From a virus, in UHGV virus genome UHGV-1353889: 49,011 nt of DNA; one strand, 5' to 3'. Under the pieces are notes generated by a model. It had not been told where the DNA came from. It saw only the letters and a program-made list of their open reading frames with translations, and made no database searches. A program made the position numbers and the translations under genes. Shown here one piece after another: positions 1 to 49,011 of the stretch. The stretch's first letter is position 1. Each line of letters opens with the position of its first letter.

Positions 1-120
1 AGGCTTTGTGCTCTTCGATAGTTGTTAAGGCGGATCACTCTACCTTCTCATCAAGCCAATCCGCCCACCACTGCATCATTTCTCTGCGCTTATCGAGATA
101 CTGAGCATGGTTGTAAATTC
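1..120. repeat. Left copy of 120-bp direct repeat (putative att-derived); overlaps 3' end of the integrase gene
   Basis: 118/120 identical to 40241-40360 (differences at 56 and 60); sequences diverge immediately after position 120/40360. Confidence 0.8.
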
Positions 121-1228
121 CACGCACAGAACCGCCGTTGGCATGTGCTAGTTGCACTTCAATAGCATCAGCGGGCCATTCGTGCTCGTTCATAATCGTG
201 CTGAATTCATGCCTGAATCCGTGACCGCTTTCCAGACCCTCATAGCCAATTTGTTTGATCACAAGCAATACCGCGTTCTCGCAGATTGGCTTCTTCTTAT
301 CGTTGCGCCCGGCAAAAACAAATTCTGATACTGGTTTAGTGATGGAGCTTAGCGTAGTGAGAAGTTCAACCACCTGGTCTGACATAGGAACAACATGAAT
401 CTTGCGGCCCTTCATCACACTGGCGTCGATAGTGATAATCCTGTTTTCAAAATCGACGTTCTTCCATTGCATGGAACGAAGCTCTTTCGTTCTTAGGGCT
501 GTGTAGCGTAAAACTTTGGTCGCAATGAGCGATACGATGCTTCCTGAAAATGTTGCCAGTGCTTTGTTGAATGCAGGGATCTGGTCTGCTGGAAGAAACG
601 GGAAGTTCTTCTTGCGGTATCCTTTCATGGCGTCTGCAAGGTCAGGTGCCGGGTTATATTTAGCCCTACCAGTAACAATAGCGTAACGGAAAACCTCGCC
701 GCATCTTCTGCGTGCTTTGTTGGCTCGCTCCATTGCGCCGCGATCTTCAAATCTGCGGATTACTTCCAGAAGTTGCATCGGCTCAATATCCTGAATTTCA
801 AGGCTGCCGATGATAGGTAAAATGTCGTCATCAAACATTTTGGCAAGTTCAGTTGCATAGCCTACTGACCAGACTTGCTTCTTGTGCTCGTACCATTCCT
901 TGTAAATCGCACTAAAGGAATTGTTGTTAGACGAAGCCTTTTTCGCCTTTACAGGATCGATGCCAACCGAGATGTCTTTCCTCGCGGTCCATGCTTTATC
1001 CCTTGCCTCCTGCAAAGTCATAAGCGGATATTTTCCGACGGTCAGGATTTTCTCCTTACCGTCAATCTTGTAGCGAAGCTGCCATACCTTTTTTCCGGAT
1101 ACAGGGACATAAAGGTACAGACCATTACCATCGAGTAGGCGGTATGGTTTTTCTTTCGGCTTTGCTGCTTCAATCTGCTTAACGGTGAGCATGGGTAAAA
1201 ATCCGGTGGGTAAAATTATTTTATCCAC
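35..1228 (-). CDS. int: Tyrosine recombinase / phage integrase (P4-like family)
   Basis: 397 aa; N-terminal arm-binding-like region, C-terminal HGFRHEFST ... VRGIYNHAQY catalytic signature (R-H-R-Y); terminal position in prophage. Confidence 0.9.
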   Translation of the reverse strand: MDKIILPTGFLPMLTVKQIEAAKPKEKPYRLLDGNGLYLYVPVSGKKVWQLRYKIDGKEKILTVGKYPLMTLQEARDKAWTARKDISVGIDPVKAKKASSNNNSFSAIYKEWYEHKKQVWSVGYATELAKMFDDDILPIIGSLEIQDIEPMQLLEVIRRFEDRGAMERANKARRRCGEVFRYAIVTGRAKYNPAPDLADAMKGYRKKNFPFLPADQIPAFNKALATFSGSIVSLIATKVLRYTALRTKELRSMQWKNVDFENRIITIDASVMKGRKIHVVPMSDQVVELLTTLSSITKPVSEFVFAGRNDKKKPICENAVLLVIKQIGYEGLESGHGFRHEFSTIMNEHEWPADAIEVQLAHANGGSVRGIYNHAQYLDKRREMMQWWADWLDEKVE

Positions 1229-3544: not shown

Positions 3545-3708
3545 TGGTTGCCTCCTTTGCGCCACATCGCATTCAGATATTTGTTTTGATTTACTGATGG
3601 AAAAGAATTTCTCTTAAGTAATTCCTCTCTCGATGGCATTGGCTTTACGCGTTGGCGAATAATCATTTCTGCCGGAAGAATGCCGGGATTGTATGCAAGT
3701 CCTCTCAT
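3541..3708 (-). CDS. Small conserved protein (55 aa), hypothetical
   Basis: Manual translation [55 protein letters not shown]; near-identical copy at 44091..44258; below the 60-aa cutoff of the ORF track. Confidence 0.45.
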
Positions 3709-3724
3709 GGTAAATTCCTCTTTG

Positions 3725-4039
3725 TTAATTTATTCGTATGCCTGTTCTCTCTTCATCGAGTTTTTTTAGCTTGTATCGCATAGCTCTCACTGAATAAATT
3801 GAGCGGCAGGTTGCAATTGCTATTTCTTCTGCGGAGAACTTACCGAAAAGTGATACTTCGGCTCTTGTCCAGCGTCTTCCACGAAGTCGGCTAACAATGT
3901 CAGCGCCAATCCTTGTTGCTTTCGCCATTACTGCTTTTTCAGTCCTTTCCAGTTTTTCAGCGATAACTTCAACTGGCATTGTCGCCGCTACTTCGCGTAA
4001 GAAATCGACTTCCCATTTCTCCCAAGGAGTCTTTTTCAT
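3725..4039 (-). CDS. Conserved phage protein, putative DNA-binding (two HTH-like segments)
   Basis: 104 aa; near-identical paralogue at 44553..44867. Confidence 0.45.
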
Positions 4040-4050
4040 AGGCGATACCG

Positions 4051-4539
4051 TTATTTGATAAGAAGTGAAGGTTTCCCAACTTTGAGTTGAGCACCGGGGA
4101 TATTTATTCCTGCTTTTAGTTGGTGTTTGATTGCCAGTTTGTCGGCTTTAATTGTCGTTTCGAACTCAACGTATTCAGGAGGAAGGGCGCTTGAGTCGAT
4201 GATTTCTACAGTTTCTGACGGTTTGCGGATTGTTACCTGGTGAATACCTGCTCGAATCTTTTTCTTTCCAACCATTTCAAGCGATGACGCTATATACGTC
4301 ATAATGCTATCAATCTTATTTTGAATTACTGCTGCTCTTTCATTCAGTGACTTTGCCTCTTCCTTGAGGCGTTCAGCATAACCAGACTCATTTTTAATGA
4401 TGGCAAGAAGTTGCTCTATTTTATCGGTAAATTCTCCTTCCATGCCTTCTATTGTGTCAGCAATCATCTCTGGTTCTAAATCTGAATCCATCAATTTTGC
4501 GTATTCATTGGCAATTTCATACAGTTTGCTCACTGGCAA
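4051..4539 (-). CDS. Gp157-like protein (Sipho_Gp157 family, tentative)
   Basis: 162 aa acidic coiled-coil protein directly downstream of the RecT-family gene, the usual partner position; identical copy at 44879..45367. Confidence 0.5.
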   Translation of the reverse strand: MPVSKLYEIANEYAKLMDSDLEPEMIADTIEGMEGEFTDKIEQLLAIIKNESGYAERLKEEAKSLNERAAVIQNKIDSIMTYIASSLEMVGKKKIRAGIHQVTIRKPSETVEIIDSSALPPEYVEFETTIKADKLAIKHQLKAGINIPGAQLKVGKPSLLIK

Positions 4540-5428
4540 CCTCCAGTTTCGCTTTGCATTCTATGTAAATGGCTTGTACGTTCTGCTGCAATTTCATTCC
4601 AGATGTCAGGCGATATGCTTCTGCAAAATATCGCTTCAAATCATCCATGTTTTCTGCCTGAGCCATTTCATCACAAAGAAGTTGTGCTTTATCCGTTATT
4701 TCCTGCTGGCGTTTCCGTTCATCTTCGCGGATATCTTCCTCTGATTTGTGCGGCATAACTGGTTCAGTCCACACACCTTCTTCTTCGTTTAGTACGTGAA
4801 TAGCACTATCAAGACGTGATGCCTTAGGCCAATACTTGCTTGCACGCTTTACGACCGTCTTTCGCGCCATCTCATTCCAGTGATTTACCCATGGTCCTTT
4901 ATCGCTGAATGCCGCCTTGCTTGTTTTCCTTACAGCCTCAATTTCAGCCAGACTCATCTCTTCCGTTAGATAATCACCTGCTGGCGTCTTAACTGTGCAG
5001 TAAACGCCAACGATATCACCACGATCACCGAAGGCGTTGTATTTATGGGTTGGTGCTTTATCAAGCCCGTTTGACTCATAGGTATCGTTAGCATGAACAA
5101 GTTTTGCCTGACCCCATGAGATAACACCAGACTCCATTGCAATATGGAGCAATCCCATATAGCTGATATCAAGGCAAACCATGCCGTCGCGCGGAACCAG
5201 ATAAGCCAGTTTGCTAGCCGGGTTTAAGGTGATGCCGATCGCCGCAACATTGATGATGGCGTTCTGTGCGCTGGTTGGATTTGCCAGTGCCGTTTTAGCC
5301 AGGTAATCATTTTTCTGGAAATACTGAATTGCAAACTGGCTTTCCTTAGCCCATGTCACCGTCTGTTCAGTCAATGCTCCGCAGAATAACTGCTCCTGCT
5401 GTTTAACGAATTCAACGATATTGCTCAT
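4517..5428 (-). CDS. RecT-family single-strand annealing recombinase
   Basis: 303 aa; segment GPWVNHWNEMARKTVVKRASKYWP parallels the RecT core GPWVTHWEEMAKKTAIRRLFKYLP; identical copy at 45345..46256. Confidence 0.75.
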   Translation of the reverse strand: MSNIVEFVKQQEQLFCGALTEQTVTWAKESQFAIQYFQKNDYLAKTALANPTSAQNAIINVAAIGITLNPASKLAYLVPRDGMVCLDISYMGLLHIAMESGVISWGQAKLVHANDTYESNGLDKAPTHKYNAFGDRGDIVGVYCTVKTPAGDYLTEEMSLAEIEAVRKTSKAAFSDKGPWVNHWNEMARKTVVKRASKYWPKASRLDSAIHVLNEEEGVWTEPVMPHKSEEDIREDERKRQQEITDKAQLLCDEMAQAENMDDLKRYFAEAYRLTSGMKLQQNVQAIYIECKAKLEVASEQTV

Positions 5429-5736
5429 GCTGCTTCTCCATAAATGTGTCTGCGTTTGAATATTGCGAAGGCATATTCAGCCTTAACTCTTTCGGTTATT
5501 GCATCCCAGAACCATTCAGCGGCTTTTTCCTGATAGTTACAGTCATCATCTTCCAGCCAGTCGATAGCGTCCTTAGTGTGTTCATCTGGTTTATATGAGC
5601 GAAGCATTTCGCTTATTGGGTCGCAACGTTTGCAGAGACGATCAACTTCACTGTTGATTCGTTCGTAATCTTCATCAGTAAAACTTGCGATAATTTGCGA
5701 TATTTCACGCTTATCATTCAGAGTCAGAATCATCAT
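5425..5736 (-). CDS. Hypothetical early protein
   Basis: 103 aa, start overlaps RecT-family gene stop; copy at 46253..46564 with one substitution. Confidence 0.45.
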   Translation of the reverse strand: MMILTLNDKREISQIIASFTDEDYERINSEVDRLCKRCDPISEMLRSYKPDEHTKDAIDWLEDDDCNYQEKAAEWFWDAITERVKAEYAFAIFKRRHIYGEAA

Positions 5737-5817
5737 CTTTCTCCTGTTCTTTGTGCTGATTGAGCATTTTGTTCATCTGACGAATGAATTCTTCGTCTGA
5801 CCAGTTATCTGTAAAAC

Positions 5818-6534: not shown

Positions 6535-6861
6535 TCAAATAAGTGGTTTGCAGCCTAATTTCATTTTCTGGCGACCAACACAAGTCACCCCCATTTCACT
6601 GCGTGGCTTGCTGTACCATGTGCGCTGATTCTTGCGCTCAATACGTTGCAGGTTGCTTTCAATCTGTTCGTGGTATTCAGCCAGCACCGTAAGGTCTATC
6701 GGATTCAGTGCGCTTTCTACTCGTGATTTCGGTTTGCGATTCAGCGAGAGAATAGGGCGGTTAACTGGTTTTGCGCTTACCCCAACCAACAGGGGATTTG
6801 CTGCTTTCCATTGAGCCTGTTTCTCTGCGCGACGTTCGCGGCGGCGTGTTTGTGCATCCAT
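6535..6861 (-). CDS. N: Antitermination protein N (lambda-type)
   Basis: Arginine-rich motif MDAQTRRRERRAEKQAQWKAAN and the remainder match lambda N as I recall it; the track ORF 6535..6993 is an upstream over-extension. Confidence 0.85.
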   Translation of the reverse strand: MDAQTRRRERRAEKQAQWKAANPLLVGVSAKPVNRPILSLNRKPKSRVESALNPIDLTVLAEYHEQIESNLQRIERKNQRTWYSKPRSEMGVTCVGRQKMKLGCKPLI

Positions 6862-7090
6862 CTGGATTCTCCTGTCAGTTAGCTTTGGTTGTGTGTGGGA
6901 GTCGTAGTCCTGAACGAAAACACCCCGCAATGGCACATTGGCAGCTAATCCGGATTCGCACTTCCGGCCAATGCTTCGTTTCGTATCACACACACCAAAG
7001 CCTTCTGCTTTGAATGCTGCCCTTCTTCAGGGCTTAATTTTTAAGAGCATCACCTTCATGGTGGTTAGTGCGTCCTGCTGATGTGTTTAG

Positions 7091-7152
7091 TATCACCGCC
7101 AGTGGTATTTATGTCAACACCGCCAGAGATAATTTATTACCGCAGATGGTTA
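7091..7152 (-). promoter_or_regulatory. OL operators / pL promoter (lambda immunity type)
   Basis: TATCACCGCCAGTGGTA, CAACACCGCCAGAGATA and TATTACCGCAGATGGTT match lambda OL1-OL3; -35 TTGACA on minus strand within OL2. Confidence 0.8.
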
Positions 7153-7307: not shown

Positions 7308-7334
7308 AAAGAAAACCCGGCGCAGATGCCGGGT
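7308..7334 (-). terminator. Intrinsic terminator downstream of the cI-proximal accessory gene
   Basis: Minus-strand hairpin CCCGGCATCTGCGCCGGG followed by UUUUC. Confidence 0.6.
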
Positions 7335-7345
7335 TGTGGTAGAGA

Positions 7346-8251
7346 TCAATGCTTATTTGGGAGTGCTGGTTTTTTTATCGACTCTAATAGCTCGGAGGCG
7401 TTACTAATCTTTTTGTTCCCAAGGTAATTTGGCAGTTTTTCCATTGCGTAATTATCGTGTAGCCATTTTCTGAACACGCCAAGTGCCTCAATAGGATAAA
7501 TCCAAGCTGTTATATGCTTATTTGCAGCTGACTGCCTGTAATTTTCGGGGAATAGATGTTGGTACTGCACCCTTTCCCCGAATTTCTCAGATAGCCTATT
7601 AGCTGTCCAATACTTTCCCCAGTGAATTCCAACACTTCCATCCAAAGATGTGGTGTCATCCATTGGGAATCCTCCTCCGATCAGGTTCATGGCAATGTCA
7701 GCTATCTCTCTGAATACTGCAAAATGAGTTGTCGGTATCTGATCGTTTAGCTTAATCCTTGCTCTATAGTTCTCGAATGAGATATCTATTGAAGCATTTG
7801 GGTTGTAATTTGACTTTTCATAAATCATTCGCTTAAGCGTGTACTCAGCCAAGCGAACAAAATTACCTATTGCGACTGACCTATCAAAATTGGTGGCATC
7901 TAGAGCGTAGTAACGGAGGATAGCCATGCAAACATAGTCAGGATAAGCATGAGTTTCCACGTTTGAGCTATTTATAACGCGAGTGTATAGCTTTTCGACG
8001 TTATGAAACCCTTTCTCAGCTAAATACGCAGCTACTTTTTGACCTCTGGGTTTGTTTTTCTCTGTGTTCCAGTTTGATGTGAACACCCTCAGTGGCGTGT
8101 CATCAATGCCGCATAACTTTGCGAGACCGTAGAGAGTTAGGTAAGGAGTTCCATCATTGAGAACGCCCATAGGAATATCATCAGAAACAACCTCTACTAC
8201 AGGGAAAAGCTGCATTTGATGCAGGGATTCGCTATTGCTGTTAATCGACAT
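7346..8251 (-). CDS. Uncharacterized 301-aa protein in the rexA/rexB position (candidate lysogen-expressed exclusion gene)
   Basis: Same strand as and immediately downstream of cI, followed by a terminator; no confident family assignment from reading. Confidence 0.6.
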   Translation of the reverse strand: MSINSNSESLHQMQLFPVVEVVSDDIPMGVLNDGTPYLTLYGLAKLCGIDDTPLRVFTSNWNTEKNKPRGQKVAAYLAEKGFHNVEKLYTRVINSSNVETHAYPDYVCMAILRYYALDATNFDRSVAIGNFVRLAEYTLKRMIYEKSNYNPNASIDISFENYRARIKLNDQIPTTHFAVFREIADIAMNLIGGGFPMDDTTSLDGSVGIHWGKYWTANRLSEKFGERVQYQHLFPENYRQSAANKHITAWIYPIEALGVFRKWLHDNYAMEKLPNYLGNKKISNASELLESIKKPALPNKH

Positions 8252-8337
8252 ATCTTAATGATTTCCTTATTTTTATTGTAGGGATCTTCTTTTTTATTTC
8301 CTACATCTAGATGCGTATAAAGTCTCTTGCTGCGGAC

Positions 8338-9054
<717 letters not shown>

Positions 9055-9062
9055 TTAAATCT

Positions 9063-9127
9063 ATCACCGCAAGGGATAAATATCTAACACCGTGCGTGTT
9101 GACTATTTTACCTCTAGCGGTGATAAT
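9063..9127. promoter_or_regulatory. OR operators with pRM/pR promoters
   Basis: TATCACCGCAAGGGATA (OR3), TAACACCGTGCGTGTTG (OR2), TACCTCTAGCGGTGATA (OR1); pR -35 TTGACT and -10 GATAAT. Confidence 0.85.
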
Positions 9128-9142
9128 GGTTGCATGTACTAA

Positions 9143-9352
<210 letters not shown>

Positions 9353-16087: not shown

Positions 16088-16162
16088 GGGTCAGTCGTAT
16101 AAAGGTCATTACGGAAGGCTGCTAACCTTCTTATCGTGGTTCGAGTCCACGCTGTCCCGCCA
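16088..16162 (+). tRNA. tRNA gene (manual fold; anticodon loop CUGCUAA gives GCU; isotype uncertain)
   Basis: Acceptor GGGTCAG/CTGTCCC (one U-U mismatch), T-arm CGTGG-TTCGAGT-CCACG, 3' G-CCA; 4-nt variable loop is atypical for a GCU tRNA. Confidence 0.5.
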
Positions 16163-16167
16163 AATAT

Positions 16168-16243
16168 GCTGGTTTAGCTCCAATGGTAGAGCGGTCGCCT
16201 TGTAAGCGAATGGGTAGCGGTTCAAGTCCGTTAACCAGCACCA
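16168..16243 (+). tRNA. tRNA gene, predicted anticodon UGU (Thr) by manual cloverleaf
   Basis: 76 nt; perfect 7-bp acceptor stem GCTGGTT/AACCAGC, D-arm TAGCTCCAATGGTAGAGC, anticodon loop CTTGTAA, T-loop TTCAAGT, discriminator A plus CCA. Confidence 0.65.
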
Positions 16244-40240: not shown

Positions 40241-40360
40241 AGGCTTTGTGCTCTTCGATAGTTGTTAAGGCGGATCACTCTACCTTCTCATCAATCCAGT
40301 CCGCCCACCACTGCATCATTTCTCTGCGCTTATCGAGATACTGAGCATGGTTGTAAATTC
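40241..40360. repeat. Right copy of 120-bp direct repeat (integrase 3'-end fragment)
   Basis: 118/120 identical to 1-120; encodes last ~28 codons of integrase with an in-frame stop just upstream. Confidence 0.8.
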
Positions 40361-40429: not shown

Positions 40430-40660
40430 CTCAGGTCACTAATACTATCTAAGTAGTTGATTCATAGTGACTGGATATGTTGTGTTTTGTAGTATTATGC
40501 AGTCTATTATTTAGACTAAACCCTTCATAACATATTGATATTTACAGTGTTTTCTGTTTCTCGTTCAGCTTTTTTATACTAAGTTGGCATTATAAAAAAG
40601 CATTGCTTATCAATTTGTTGCAACGAACAGGTCACTATCAGTCAAAATAAAATCATTATT
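40430..40660. other. Lambda-type attachment site with P-arm-like, core (GCTTTTTTATACTAA at 40568-40582) and P'-arm sequences, i.e. attP-like rather than attL
   Basis: Core 15-mer exact; right flank matches lambda P' arm into int; left flank resembles lambda P arm (CAGGTCACTAATAC ... TTCTCGTTCAGC). Confidence 0.8.
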
Positions 40661-41726
40661 TGATTTCAATTTTGTCCCACTCCCTGCCTCTGTCATCACG
40701 ATACTGTGATGCCATGGTGTCCGACTTATGCCCGAGAAGATGTTGAGCAAACTTATCGCTTATCTGCTTCTCATAGAGTCTTGCAGACAAACTGCGCAAC
40801 TCGTGAAAGGTAGGCGGATCCCCTTCGAAGGAAAGACCTGATGCTTTTCGTGCGCGCATAAAATACCTTGATACTGTGCCGGATGAAAGCGGTTCACGAC
40901 GAGTAGATGCAATTATGGTTTCTCCGCCAAGAATCTCTTTGCATTTATCAAGTGTTTCCTTCATTGATATCCCGAGAGCATCAACATGCAATGCTGTTGG
41001 GATGGCAATTTTTACGCCTGTTTTGCTTTGCTCGACATAAAGATATCCATCTACGATATCAGACCACTTCATTTCGCATAAATCACCAACTCGTTGCCCG
41101 GTAACAACAGCCAGTTCCATTGCAAGTCTTAGCCAATATGGTGATGATTCTGCTGCTTGATAAATTTTCAGGTATTCGTCAGCCGTAAGTCTTGATCTCC
41201 TTACCTCTGATTTTGCTGCGCGAGTGGCAGCGACCGGGTTTGTTGTTATATGGCCTTCAGCTATTGCCTCTCGGAATGCATCGCTCAGTGTTGATCTGAT
41301 TAACTTGGCTGACGCAGCCTTGCCCTCGTCTATGTATCCATTGAGCATTGCCGCAATTTCTTTTGTGGTGATGTCTTCAAGTGGAGCATCAGGCAGACCC
41401 CTCCTTATTGCTTTAATTTTGCTCATGTAATTTATGAGTGTCTTCTGCTTGATTCCTCTGCTGGCGAGGATTTTTTCGTAGCGATCAAGCCATGAATGTA
41501 ACGTAACAGAATTATCACTGTTGATTCTCGCTGTCAGAGGCTTGTGTTTGTGTCCTGAAAATAACTCAATGTTGGCCTGTATAGCTTCAGTGATTGCGAT
41601 TCGCCTGTCTCGGCCTAATCCAAACTCTTTACCCGTCCTTGGGTCCCTGTAGCAGTAATATCCATTGTTTCTTATATAAAGGTTAGGGGGTAAATCCCGG
41701 CGCTCATGACTTCGCCTTCTTCCCAT
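40656..41726 (-). CDS. int: Integrase (lambda Int)
   Basis: 356 aa, near-identical to lambda Int as I recall it. Confidence 0.95.
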   Translation of the reverse strand: MGRRRSHERRDLPPNLYIRNNGYYCYRDPRTGKEFGLGRDRRIAITEAIQANIELFSGHKHKPLTARINSDNSVTLHSWLDRYEKILASRGIKQKTLINYMSKIKAIRRGLPDAPLEDITTKEIAAMLNGYIDEGKAASAKLIRSTLSDAFREAIAEGHITTNPVAATRAAKSEVRRSRLTADEYLKIYQAAESSPYWLRLAMELAVVTGQRVGDLCEMKWSDIVDGYLYVEQSKTGVKIAIPTALHVDALGISMKETLDKCKEILGGETIIASTRREPLSSGTVSRYFMRARKASGLSFEGDPPTFHELRSLSARLYEKQISDKFAQHLLGHKSDTMASQYRDDRGREWDKIEIK

Positions 41727-44258: not shown

Positions 44259-44536
44259 GATTTACTCTCCACGAACTGGTCAATAGCCATGCTAAGTGAT
44301 ACACCTAAAGTCTCGATATGCTGCTGAATATCCTGTAGCGTCTGCGCCTGAGATAACAGGATTTCACGGTTGCATAACTCTTTGACCAGATGCTCAAACT
44401 TGCTGTAATAACCGATACGGCTTAGTGTTTCTTTCCCTGCATTCTCACCTTCTTTGATAATTCCTCTTTCATTAAGAATCAGGTCGTGTTTTGTTCCAGT
44501 AATAACGTATTTACCGAGGTCGATGTTTAGCTTCAT
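44255..44536 (-). CDS. Hypothetical protein (insertion relative to element 1)
   Basis: 93-aa ORF present only in element 2 between the 55-aa and 104-aa genes. Confidence 0.4.
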
Positions 44537-44552
44537 TGTTAATTACTCCATG

Positions 44553-44867
44553 TTAATTTATTTGTATGCCTGCTCTTTTTTCATCGAGTTTTTTTAGCTT
44601 GTATCGCATAGCTCTTACTGAATAAATTGAGCGGCAGGTTGCAATTGCTATTTCTTCTGCGGAGAACTTACCGAAAAGTGATACTTCGGCTCTTGTCCAG
44701 CGTCTTCCACGAAGTCGGCTAACAATGTCAGCGCCAATCCTTGTTGCTTTCGCCATTACTGCTTTTTCAGTCCTTTCCAGTTTTTCAGCGATAACTTCAA
44801 CTGGCATTGTCGCCGCTACTTCGCGTAAGAAATCGACTTCCCATTTCTCCCAAGGAGTCTTTTTCAT
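44553..44867 (-). CDS. Conserved phage protein, putative DNA-binding (copy of 3725..4039)
   Basis: 104 aa, 3 substitutions near C-terminus relative to element 1. Confidence 0.45.
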   Translation of the reverse strand: MKKTPWEKWEVDFLREVAATMPVEVIAEKLERTEKAVMAKATRIGADIVSRLRGRRWTRAEVSLFGKFSAEEIAIATCRSIYSVRAMRYKLKKLDEKRAGIQIN

Positions 44868-44878
44868 AGGCGATACCG

Positions 44879-45367
44879 TTATTTGATAAGAAGTGAAGGT
44901 TTCCCAACTTTGAGTTGAGCACCGGGGATATTTATTCCTGCTTTTAGTTGGTGTTTGATTGCCAGTTTGTCGGCTTTAATTGTCGTTTCGAACTCAACGT
45001 ATTCAGGAGGAAGGGCGCTTGAGTCGATGATTTCTACAGTTTCTGACGGTTTGCGGATTGTTACCTGGTGAATACCTGCTCGAATCTTTTTCTTTCCAAC
45101 CATTTCAAGCGATGACGCTATATACGTCATAATGCTATCAATCTTATTTTGAATTACTGCTGCTCTTTCATTCAGTGACTTTGCCTCTTCCTTGAGGCGT
45201 TCAGCATAACCAGACTCATTTTTAATGATGGCAAGAAGTTGCTCTATTTTATCGGTAAATTCTCCTTCCATGCCTTCTATTGTGTCAGCAATCATCTCTG
45301 GTTCTAAATCTGAATCCATCAATTTTGCGTATTCATTGGCAATTTCATACAGTTTGCTCACTGGCAA
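44879..45367 (-). CDS. Gp157-like protein (copy)
   Basis: Identical to 4051..4539. Confidence 0.5.
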   Translation of the reverse strand: MPVSKLYEIANEYAKLMDSDLEPEMIADTIEGMEGEFTDKIEQLLAIIKNESGYAERLKEEAKSLNERAAVIQNKIDSIMTYIASSLEMVGKKKIRAGIHQVTIRKPSETVEIIDSSALPPEYVEFETTIKADKLAIKHQLKAGINIPGAQLKVGKPSLLIK

Positions 45368-46256
45368 CCTCCAGTTTCGCTTTGCATTCTATGTAAATGG
45401 CTTGTACGTTCTGCTGCAATTTCATTCCAGATGTCAGGCGATATGCTTCTGCAAAATATCGCTTCAAATCATCCATGTTTTCTGCCTGAGCCATTTCATC
45501 ACAAAGAAGTTGTGCTTTATCCGTTATTTCCTGCTGGCGTTTCCGTTCATCTTCGCGGATATCTTCCTCTGATTTGTGCGGCATAACTGGTTCAGTCCAC
45601 ACACCTTCTTCTTCGTTTAGTACGTGAATAGCACTATCAAGACGTGATGCCTTAGGCCAATACTTGCTTGCACGCTTTACGACCGTCTTTCGCGCCATCT
45701 CATTCCAGTGATTTACCCATGGTCCTTTATCGCTGAATGCCGCCTTGCTTGTTTTCCTTACAGCCTCAATTTCAGCCAGACTCATCTCTTCCGTTAGATA
45801 ATCACCTGCTGGCGTCTTAACTGTGCAGTAAACGCCAACGATATCACCACGATCACCGAAGGCGTTGTATTTATGGGTTGGTGCTTTATCAAGCCCGTTT
45901 GACTCATAGGTATCGTTAGCATGAACAAGTTTTGCCTGACCCCATGAGATAACACCAGACTCCATTGCAATATGGAGCAATCCCATATAGCTGATATCAA
46001 GGCAAACCATGCCGTCGCGCGGAACCAGATAAGCCAGTTTGCTAGCCGGGTTTAAGGTGATGCCGATCGCCGCAACATTGATGATGGCGTTCTGTGCGCT
46101 GGTTGGATTTGCCAGTGCCGTTTTAGCCAGGTAATCATTTTTCTGGAAATACTGAATTGCAAACTGGCTTTCCTTAGCCCATGTCACCGTCTGTTCAGTC
46201 AATGCTCCGCAGAATAACTGCTCCTGCTGTTTAACGAATTCAACGATATTGCTCAT
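45345..46256 (-). CDS. RecT-family single-strand annealing recombinase (copy)
   Basis: Identical to 4517..5428. Confidence 0.75.
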   Translation of the reverse strand: MSNIVEFVKQQEQLFCGALTEQTVTWAKESQFAIQYFQKNDYLAKTALANPTSAQNAIINVAAIGITLNPASKLAYLVPRDGMVCLDISYMGLLHIAMESGVISWGQAKLVHANDTYESNGLDKAPTHKYNAFGDRGDIVGVYCTVKTPAGDYLTEEMSLAEIEAVRKTSKAAFSDKGPWVNHWNEMARKTVVKRASKYWPKASRLDSAIHVLNEEEGVWTEPVMPHKSEEDIREDERKRQQEITDKAQLLCDEMAQAENMDDLKRYFAEAYRLTSGMKLQQNVQAIYIECKAKLEVASEQTV

Positions 46257-46564
46257 GCTGCTTCTCCATAAATGTGTCTGCGTTTGAATATTGCGAAGGC
46301 ATATTCAGCCTTAACTCTTTCGGTTATTGCATCCCAGAACCATTCAGCGGCTTTTTCCTGATAGTTACAATCATCATCTTCCAGCCAGTCGATAGCGTCC
46401 TTAGTGTGTTCACCTGGTTTATATGAGCGAAGCATTTCGCTTATTGGGTCGCAACGTTTGCAGAGGCGATCAACTTCACTGTTGATTCGCTCGTAATCTT
46501 CATCAGTAAAACTTGCGATTATTTGCGATATTTCACGCTTATCATTCAGAGTCAGAATCATCAT
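46253..46564 (-). CDS. Hypothetical early protein (copy of 5425..5736)
   Basis: 103 aa with one substitution; track ORF 46253..46672 is an artificial read-through across the N gap. Confidence 0.45.
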   Translation of the reverse strand: MMILTLNDKREISQIIASFTDEDYERINSEVDRLCKRCDPISEMLRSYKPGEHTKDAIDWLEDDDCNYQEKAAEWFWDAITERVKAEYAFAIFKRRHIYGEAA

Positions 46565-46574
46565 CTTTCTCCTG

Positions 46575-46603: not shown

Positions 46604-46946
46604 TTTGTTCATCTGACGAATGAATTCTTCGTCTGACCAGTTATCTGTAAAACTCATTTCCTGCGATACCATGGAAGGTTGATAGCTGATTTCATCGCTT
46701 TATTTGCTTCAAGCCACATTTTTGAATCACCAATAAATCGGGCTATTACTGCTTTGTTTTGTGCAGCACGAAGCATCTGGTGATTAATGGCTATTTCATT
46801 GCGCATAATAAGACCTCAACTCTTTTCCATCCGTCACGTAATTTACGGGTGATTCGTTCAAGTAAAGATTCATTTAGTTGGAAGGCACCCATGCGAGCGC
46901 CTCCCGCGATTGCGTAAATCATGGGTGGTTCCTTATGTTGGTTTTA

Positions 46947-47915
46947 TTAGTAGGTTATTTTTGTTGCGAATACTTCGCCTTTTACGATGGCTGTTATGAT
47001 ATTTTTAGCAACATCTTCTGATGCGCCAACCTTGATAAGGTCAGCAAGTATTTTGTTATTTACGTCTTTCCGGTGAGCCTTATCCTTTGCTCTACGCTCT
47101 TCTTCGTCCTTGATTCTTTTTTCTTCTGCTATTCTGGCTTGCTCTTTTGCTTCAGCCTCGCGACGGATTCGTTCAGCCTCCTCCTGTGCTTTTCTGCGTT
47201 CTACTTCAATTGCTGCCTGCTTTTCTCTTTCAGCTCGTTCTGCTGCCTCTTTTGCTTCGCGCTGTGCTCGTTGCTCGGCTTCAATGCGTTCACGCTCTGC
47301 ACGCTCCGCTGCGGCCTTAGCTTCTGCTTCTCTCCTTGCTGCTGCTTCAATGTCGGCTTTTGCCTTTGCTTCGGCTTCTGCTCTGGCTTTCTCTTCAGCT
47401 TCTCTTTTTAAGCGGTCTTCATGCTCTCGCTTTTCCTGCTCCTCTTTGAGTCTTGCCTCTTCTCTTTGTCGGTCAAATTCGCGATCCATCAAAATCGCTA
47501 TTTCATGGTCAGACTCAATTTGCTTTGCGAGAGCTTCAGCTGCTGCCTTAGCTTCTTCTTCGGCTTTAATCCGCGCCTGTTCTTCCTCATAATCAGTAAG
47601 AGGCTGGCGTGCCTTGGCTTTCAGCTCATCAAGTCGATCACGCACTGTTTTGCGGTTGGCATCAATTAGCTTTGGAATTTCCTTCAGTTCAGCAACAAGG
47701 TCTTTGCCAAGACCATCGAGATATGTTTTCGTCTGCGCAACTTTATACGCCAGAGAAGCGATCTCCTTTCTGCCCTTTGCCGTTGTGATATCAGGCACAA
47801 AGGACATAACTTCACTTTCAACCTTTTGAAGGATTTCTTCAATCTGGTCGGCAGACTGAAATACAGTCATTGCATTTGCTTTTTCAATAACAACTAAATC
47901 TGTTACTTCACTCAT
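46947..47915 (-). CDS. Hypothetical protein with long Glu/Ala/Arg/Lys-rich coiled-coil region
   Basis: 322 aa; globular N-terminal ~120 aa then ~170 aa EAR-rich repeat; plus-strand ORFs in this span are low-complexity artefacts. Confidence 0.5.
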   Translation of the reverse strand: MSEVTDLVVIEKANAMTVFQSADQIEEILQKVESEVMSFVPDITTAKGRKEIASLAYKVAQTKTYLDGLGKDLVAELKEIPKLIDANRKTVRDRLDELKAKARQPLTDYEEEQARIKAEEEAKAAAEALAKQIESDHEIAILMDREFDRQREEARLKEEQEKREHEDRLKREAEEKARAEAEAKAKADIEAAARREAEAKAAAERAERERIEAEQRAQREAKEAAERAEREKQAAIEVERRKAQEEAERIRREAEAKEQARIAEEKRIKDEEERRAKDKAHRKDVNNKILADLIKVGASEDVAKNIITAIVKGEVFATKITY

Positions 47916-47949
47916 ATATCCTCCTTCGTTGTATTCTTTAAAAACGCTC

Positions 47950-48318
47950 TCAGGCGGCTTTGATAGTCATATCATCTGAATCAAATATTCCTGATGTATC
48001 GATATCGGTAATTCTTATTCCTTCGCTACCATCCATTGGAGGCCATCCTTCCTGACCATTTCCATCATTCCAGTCGAACTCACACACAACACCATATGCA
48101 TTTAAGTCGCTTGGAATTGCTATAAGCAGAGCATGTTGCGCCAGCATGATTAATACAGCATTTAATACAGAGCCGTGTTTATTGAGTCGGTATTCAGAGT
48201 CTGACCAGAAATTATTAATCTGGTGAAGTTTTTCCTCTGTCATTACGTCATGGTCGATTTCAATTTCTATTGATGCTTTCCAGTCGTAATCAATGATGTA
48301 TTTTTTGATGTTTGACAT
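47950..48318 (-). CDS. Acidic hypothetical protein
   Basis: 122 aa, Asp/Glu-rich C-terminal half. Confidence 0.45.
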   Translation of the reverse strand: MSNIKKYIIDYDWKASIEIEIDHDVMTEEKLHQINNFWSDSEYRLNKHGSVLNAVLIMLAQHALLIAIPSDLNAYGVVCEFDWNDGNGQEGWPPMDGSEGIRITDIDTSGIFDSDDMTIKAA

Positions 48319-48468
48319 CTATTCATATCCTCATAGATAAAAAATCGCCCTCACACTGGAGGGCAAAGAAGATTTCCAATAATCAGAACAAGTCGGCTCC
48401 TGTTTAGTTACGAGCGACATTGCTCCGTGTATTCACTCGTTGGAATGAATACACAGTGCTTATTCGTA

Positions 48469-48939
48469 CTAATAAAACACCCAATTTTCTGTTTCTTGGT
48501 TGTGTCCAAAGTTATATTCAATATCTGGTGTTGATGTATCAATATTCTTCATCCCATCAACAAGAGTTGATACAACAGCCAAATCTTGTTTGATTCTCAT
48601 CAAATGGTATTTCTTCCGGCGCAATAAACTTTCAATGGCAAGTTTCTTCGTCGGGAATGCAAAAGATCTTTCTGCATTTTTTGCTACTTTCTTAATTGCA
48701 TATCTATTTCTCCTTTGTTTCCATTCCTGTAACCACAGATTTGGTGCTGGTTTAAAATTAACAATCCAATGCGCAGGAACCAACCATGCATAATGCTCTG
48801 TCTGATGAAAAGCTATATATTGAAGTGCGAATATTTTGATTCCATCTTCTTCAACTGTCGCTTGGAATCTCCAGAAAACAGGCATTCCATCATGTTCAGT
48901 TTCTGATTCAGGAAAAGGTACGCTCCATGATTTTGTCAT
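48469..48939 (-). CDS. Hypothetical protein (moron inserted within tL-like hairpin cluster)
   Basis: 156 aa; flanked by sequence that is contiguous in element 1 (6061-6221), insertion bounded by CAGTGC. Confidence 0.5.
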   Translation of the reverse strand: MTKSWSVPFPESETEHDGMPVFWRFQATVEEDGIKIFALQYIAFHQTEHYAWLVPAHWIVNFKPAPNLWLQEWKQRRNRYAIKKVAKNAERSFAFPTKKLAIESLLRRKKYHLMRIKQDLAVVSTLVDGMKNIDTSTPDIEYNFGHNQETENWVFY

Positions 48940-49011
48940 ATCTCACCTCAAATAATTCAGTGCAGTGTTTATTCTGTTGTTTATGCCAAAAGAAGGCCGA
49001 CTATGCGGCCT

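Follow-up and report, generated by a model that had tools for sequence, protein, structure and literature searches.

BstA was defined as a prophage abortive-infection protein that localises together with the DNA of an infecting phage and prevents this DNA from being replicated (Owen et al., 2021; PMC8585504). Defence has been shown genetically for three BstA proteins, mutually 40–48% identical, including one from E. coli. The latter, the homolog of strain NCTC10963, was tested as BstA-Ec (gene E4V89_RS07420; NZ_CAADJH010000002.1, 1520985–1521881); it confers phage resistance and, after transfer of its locus into P22, its own cognate self-immunity (PMC8585504). Self-immunity of the prophage is given by an element called aba, and the aba elements of different variants are not interchangeable. 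In BTP1, aba is a segment of 63 bp, made up of 29 bp upstream of bstA and 34 bp of its coding sequence (CDS), with terminal direct repeats of CCCGCC. Immunity is lost when one base is changed in either of the terminal repeats, and it is as untranscribed DNA, not as RNA or peptide, that the element works in trans (PMC8585504). Here, we have analysed the virus genome UHGV-1353889, a stretch of 49,011 nucleotides (the whole of which is referred to hereafter as the window), in which a gene for a protein of 301 amino acids (aa) follows a lambda-type cI repressor gene. We report that this gene is very probably bstA, and we predict the position of its aba element from a repeat geometry that recurs in bstA loci.

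Identity of the gene downstream of cI

The window protein was matched over its full length by two BstA profiles, the PADLOC BstA model (E 7.7e-106; residues 8–286, profile positions 4–281 of 292) and PHROG 6287, 'BstA abortive infection system, replication inhibitor' (E 8e-133; residues 5–301, profile positions 3–304 of 304). Comparison by tblastn with the BstA of Salmonella phage BTP1 gave 42.3% identity over 99% of the query, and matches were also obtained in Klebsiella and Pseudomonas phage homologs. The BstA C-terminal domain, PF26567, is present by precomputed annotation on all 116 homologs except one short fragment, and also on the representative of the window protein's own 90% cluster. 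Scans of the window protein with NCBIfam and with a copy of Pfam that does not contain the PF26567 model returned no matches. The exact window protein was found on 145 contigs and is named 'BstA-like C-terminal domain-containing protein' by its sources. Its AlphaFold2 (AF2) model is confident, with a predicted local distance difference test score (pLDDT) of 86; no solved structural relative was found for the BstA C-terminal domain.

The initial annotation, made by reading the sequence alone, had described an uncharacterized gene whose product is not Rex-like and recalls proteins of the BstA type. The profile matches and the similarity to BTP1 BstA support this assignment, and the PADLOC matches of the protein were limited to BstA and a weak helix-turn-helix (HTH) model, in agreement with a product that is not Rex-like. 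The label 'uncharacterized' is outdated, because the BstA family was characterised in 2021.

The gene could also be placed among known alleles. Beside the NCTC10963 gene, Table S1 of PMC8585504 lists a homolog from E. coli 2012C-4431 (CP024289, 382841–383737), which is 98.2% identical to the window gene in DNA and 99% identical in protein. The 3' part of primers NW_761/NW_764, used in the cloning of bstA-Ec, corresponds to window 8314–8337 (24/24), and the bstA-Ec sequencing primer NW_790 corresponds to window 8132–8155 (24/24); both sites are absent from a second E. coli allele, the ZH063 type described below. As the primers match the window and not the ZH063 type, BstA-Ec appears to be of the window type. 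A deposition from 2007, that of the lambda-immunity phage CL707, has the same immunity region (98.6% identical in DNA). Its allele bears the annotation 'hypothetical protein' and, as protein, is 99% identical to that of the window. Near-identity to the catalogued 2012C-4431 allele, together with the exact bstA-Ec primer matches, indicates that the gene and its family are already known. We conclude that the window gene is very probably bstA, a single-protein prophage abortive-infection defence, and a close allele of the tested BstA-Ec.

Position of bstA in the immunity region

The features of the locus are as follows.

7346..8251, minus strand: bstA CDS, 301 aa and stop codon, ATG start (open reading frame (ORF) call and BstA profile matches)
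8252..8337, minus strand: cI–bstA spacer, 86 bp (no terminator predicted by terminator scan)
8338..9051, minus strand: cI, lambda-immunity repressor, 237 aa (ORF and 97.7% DNA identity to lambda cI-cro-cII)
9099–9127: pR-like promoter (promoter scan)
9152..9352, plus strand: cro, divergent from cI (ORF and lambda similarity)
7314..7335, minus strand: predicted intrinsic terminator hairpin after bstA, equivalent of Timm (terminator scan; Timm in EF120459)
7117..7089, minus strand: pL-like promoter (promoter scan)
6535..6861, minus strand: lambda-type antiterminator N, left boundary of the slot (ORF translation includes MDAQTRRRERRAEKQAQWKAAN)

bstA and cI lie on one strand with 86 bp between them, and the terminator scan predicted no terminator-like site in this spacer. 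Just 3' of the bstA stop codon, at 7335..7314, the scan found the hairpin AACCCGGCATCTGCGCCGGGTT, in which 6 of the 8 pairs are GC, with TTCTTT behind it; its counterpart in phage CL707 (EF120459) carries the annotation terminator Timm. The cI-cro-cII block shares 97.7% identity with that of lambda, the alignment starting right at the stop codon of cI (lambda coordinate 37227). Records of CL707 and of E. coli have an annotated N in the equivalent place. With cI on one side and the pL-like promoter and N on the other, bstA occupies the place of rexA/rexB. This is where the initial annotation had put it, on the strand of cI, directly downstream and ending in a terminator, and the ORF coordinates, the terminator scan and the lambda alignment all agree; the range given there, 7308–8251, holds the 301-aa ORF plus the terminator. 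PADLOC detected no RexA/RexB homology, the slot holds a single gene and not a two-gene operon, and lambda homology ends at the cI stop codon.

A similar arrangement is found elsewhere in the family: in BTP1 and RCIP0114 bstA directly follows the repressor, and in D14H and PseuP_222 one small gene stands between the two. bstA DNA is 98–99.8% conserved in ten complete E. coli genomes and in phage CL707; the intact ORF is therefore not a chance ORF.

Repeat geometry across bstA loci

Start codons were assigned in 80 diverse, non-redundant bstA loci (individual loci are given L numbers), and exact direct repeats of at least 6 bp that straddle the start were recorded at spacings of 30–90 bp. A spacing of 56 bp occurred in 19 loci and one of 57 bp in 14, while all other spacings in this range occurred in 0–4 loci each. 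In a second test the invariant M-G-V codons, and not the start codon, served as anchor, with other spacing pairs as control. At least 8 matches in 10 positions at spacing 56/57 were found in 46 of 79 loci, as compared with a mean of 2.6 and a maximum of 11 for the control pairs. A position-averaged self-match profile at fixed offsets had proved too blurred because of start-codon jitter and was replaced by the per-locus counts of the longest repeat.

The sequence of the repeat varies by locus (GGTCACCA, CCGCGCAC, CCCGCACC, GATCGCCA, TACCTGCC, TAGGCCCA, AAGGAAATC and others). The second copy begins 56–81 nt before the MGV codons, mostly 56–74 nt. Of the 15 loci whose repeats are longest, 14 have the motif at these two places alone within ∼5.8 kb, the exception being L006, which has two extra copies of a 7-mer. 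In about eight loci, mostly alphaproteobacterial, the Shine-Dalgarno box AAGGAAATC is itself the repeated motif. Six alphaproteobacterial loci with this motif (L050, L065, L069, L078, L080 and L083) carry a further, degenerate copy, AAAGAAATC, just past the start codon; in this clade the third copy gives rise to an excess of matches at a spacing of 36 bp (9 loci).

We consider it rather likely that these repeats reflect a family-wide aba architecture. Such an aba would consist of two locus-specific motifs of ∼6–14 bp placed 56–57 bp apart, one upstream of or at the ribosome-binding site and the other in the first codons before QGxLxL...MGV; specificity would reside in the repeat and be switched by segment replacement. 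Neither the 56–57 bp repeat rule nor an E. coli aba was found in PMC8585504, its figure legends or the later literature searched. The rule and the predicted E. coli element are thus a modest, testable addition beyond the known gene.

Predicted aba of the window gene

The window locus has the following features within this geometry.

8223..8285, minus strand: predicted aba, 63 bp, made up of 34 bp 5' of the ATG plus 29 nt at the start of the CDS (repeat geometry)
8280..8285, minus strand: upstream ATCCCT, extended GATCCCTACA, in the cI–bstA spacer
8259..8268, minus strand: AAGGAAATCA box, Shine-Dalgarno sequence and conserved flank, inside the predicted aba
8223..8228, minus strand: downstream ATCCCT, extended AATCCCTGCA, in bstA codons 8–10

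The two ATCCCT copies are 57 bp apart, and 8 of the 10 positions of their extended forms agree. The second copy lies 5' of the conserved M-G-V codons, and the distance from its start to these codons is 58 nt in the window and 59 nt in BTP1. Because the window repeats fit the spacing of the family and lie in the same place as those of BTP1, we predict that the aba of the window gene is at 8223–8285. The fragment that makes P22 immune to BstA-Ec begins at the equivalent of window 8337, with the predicted aba inside. The AAGGAAATCA box, or a near copy of it, also precedes the start codon in ZH063, BTP1, L020, L024 and L005. The BTP1 aba differs in its repeat, CCCGCC(A) as against ATCCCT in the window, and its start codon is shifted by ∼5–6 nt relative to the repeats. 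A self-immunity element within the gene had been raised in the initial annotation; a candidate with the geometry of BTP1 aba is indeed present in the sequence at the 5' end, where it straddles the ATG and is only partly within the CDS.

Residues 1–12 of the protein, which cover the part encoded by aba, are modelled as disordered and are unconserved. That residues 1–10 combine both properties fits a DNA-level constraint on this segment.

Two other sequence features were seen in or next to the predicted element. Immediately 3' of the second repeat, at 8224..8210 on the minus strand (codons 10–14), there is a hairpin, CTGCATcaaATGCAG, followed by CTTTTCC, with a terminator-like score. Because of its place within the CDS, and because other alleles show no conservation of a terminator there, we attach no interpretation to it; the ZH063 allele has another small inverted repeat, AGGGTgaattACCCT, at its place. 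The Dam methylation site GATC is present in both motif copies of the closest enterobacterial relatives (L002, L008, L009, L010 and L020). In the window it occurs in the upstream copy only (8284–8287), the downstream copy reading GAATCC, and BTP1 aba has none. A link of aba action to DNA methylation or to replication state would be speculative.

Two bstA alleles in E. coli

The bstA lineage was found in 33 of 5426 complete E. coli genomes (at least 80% coverage). About ten of these carry the window type and the rest a second type, which occurs in ZH063 among other strains (E. coli ST131-like prophages; WP_001576830.1). The ZH063-type allele occupies the same slot, and the cI of the ZH063 prophage is the cI of the window-type 2012C-4431 prophage (WP_001274755.1), whereas the spacer is 118 bp as compared with 86 bp in the window type. 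The two proteins are 91% identical, with residues 89–301 almost identical; codons 1–25 are unrelated, followed by another seven changes as far as residue 88. In the ZH063 type, the positions of the window repeats are taken by a different pair, GATCTCAG / GATCGCAG, also with 57 bp spacing. As this repeat is unrelated to that of the window, a different aba specificity is predicted. We infer from the sequences that aba and the N-terminal DNA-binding domain may jointly set specificity and be exchanged as a unit; the divergence of the two alleles is as expected from such an exchange.

Alternative explanations

A number of observations weigh against our reading of the gene or of the element, and they are given here together with the explanations that compete with it. 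The tie to BstA-Ec is made through primers and the 2012C-4431 entry; past the terminator, the site of the bstA-Ec reverse primer is matched inexactly in the window, where a poly-T/G tract differs, and in three other loci. BstA-Ec is slightly less active on coliphages than BstA-BTP1 (PMC8585504). The window gene might be a bstA homolog in sequence and yet have mainly another role, either as a KilA-N-type DNA-binding regulator or antirepressor, or in virulence, the role first proposed in Salmonella under the name st313-td. We regard this as very improbable, given that defence has genetic support for the three divergent BstA proteins cited above and that the window allele is of the same type as the E. 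coli one among them. Moreover, no sequence match to KilA-N, ANT or Bro families was found in 52 homologs. For Pfam KilA-N in particular, which the initial annotation had proposed as a possible likeness of the N-terminal region, there was no match at E ≤ 1 for the window protein or 51 homologs, with weak HTH matches only. Fold comparison of the N-terminal part with KilA-N / APSES domains gave low scores, and other small DNA-binding folds scored equally well or better. The proposed KilA-N likeness thus found no support in sequence and weak support in fold, and the published label 'KilA-N-like' is compatible with the structure model but is not independently established here. Equally hard to sustain is the view that the prophage is defective and its bstA copy decaying or without activity. 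Two substitutions private to the window protein, R219 and Q231 in place of the G and P of the other three alleles, would suit such a copy, as would the two adjacent lambdoid prophages of the window, a setting in which decay is common; the ORF, however, is full-length, its product keeps 31 of the 31 invariant columns of a 52-sequence alignment (by construction with the window protein as reference), the wide occurrence of the exact protein and its confident AF2 model speak for an intact product, and the neighbouring cI, cro and N are all intact in the ORF list.

Some points also stand against the prediction of aba. The exact repeat of the window is just 6 bp long (8/10 when extended) and by itself could be due to chance, and in L008 and L009, both close relatives, the copies are not perfect (GATCTCT versus GATCCCT). 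The aba of bstA-Ec was not mapped in PMC8585504, where the function of the repeats was shown for BTP1 alone. Repeats 56–57 bp apart could instead be a by-product of a translation-initiation or mRNA feature, or of a regulator binding site for bstA expression, and not the aba determinant; the clade in which the repeated motif is the Shine-Dalgarno box would be in keeping with this. We think this explanation unlikely. In BTP1, immunity is lost upon single-base changes in the repeats, and the element works in trans as DNA that is not transcribed. The motifs vary widely in sequence between loci while their spacing is fixed, and the two E. coli alleles diverge most in the predicted aba segment despite having the same cI.

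Proposed mode of action and its implications

By analogy with the BstA proteins studied in BTP1, Klebsiella and E. coli, the locus would work as follows. In the lysogen, bstA would be transcribed with cI by read-through from pRM across the terminator-less spacer to the Timm-like terminator. Upon infection by a heterologous phage, BstA may gather at the replicating phage DNA and block its replication; the infected cell would still lyse, and no progeny would be released. When its own prophage is induced, the aba overlapping the 5' end of bstA would suppress the prophage's own BstA on the replicating prophage DNA. The defence phenotype, the function of aba and its specificity are in this way attributed to the window gene by analogy.

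The repeat geometry would extend the single mapped aba, that of BTP1, to a rule for any BstA locus. Should the family-wide architecture hold, aba could be predicted in any bstA locus, here at 8223–8285, and a constraint at the level of DNA would have shaped the disordered first ∼10 residues of BstA. Owen et al. left the E. coli element unmapped, and the prediction provides a precise 63-bp candidate for it. How BstA discriminates between self and foreign DNA was left open in 2021 (PMC8585504), and the two natural E. coli alleles, which lie behind near-identical lambda-type repressors, are a ready pair with which to address the distinction between own and foreign DNA.

The remainder of the window and the accessory slot

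The window contains two adjacent lambdoid prophages, with integrase genes at 35..1228 and 40656..41726, both on the minus strand. Window 1–120 recurs at 40241–40360 (98%), and a 2-kb RecT-type recombination module is duplicated (3705–5746 versus 44533–46574; 99.3%). The pL arm of the second prophage (46608–49011) is 98% identical to that of the ZH063 prophage that bears the other bstA allele, and the window ends ahead of the N gene and immunity region of this second prophage. A search for that region past the right edge found the same junction in none of the complete E. coli genomes. Elsewhere, the pL-arm module at the window end is joined to several different immunity regions (loci L090–L098), in which the slot between the repressor and N holds 122-aa and 134-aa proteins without Pfam match and a HigB-toxin-like gene. 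These contents fit a hotspot for accessory or defence genes in the repressor–N slot. Two phage-borne tRNA genes, Ser-GCT and Thr-TGT, lie at 16088–16243, in a region that follows the late antiterminator gene by comparison with a related prophage (L088).

Comparison with known systems

BstA-Ec is the nearest of the tested systems. As in the window, its gene sits after the prophage repressor, and it appears to be of the same allele type, with a difference in the poly-T/G tract at the reverse primer. BstA-BTP1 is 41–42% identical to the window protein over the full length, and both genes are downstream of cI. KilA-N / APSES domains, in comparison, have no Pfam match in the window protein and score low in fold. 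The RexA/RexB system of lambda occupies the same slot between cI and pL/N. Both are abortive-infection systems and both are expressed in lysogens, which for the window gene would hold by analogy. Rex, however, consists of two proteins that have no sequence relation to the single BstA, and the literature describes Rex as acting via a membrane channel and BstA as acting by a block to replication.
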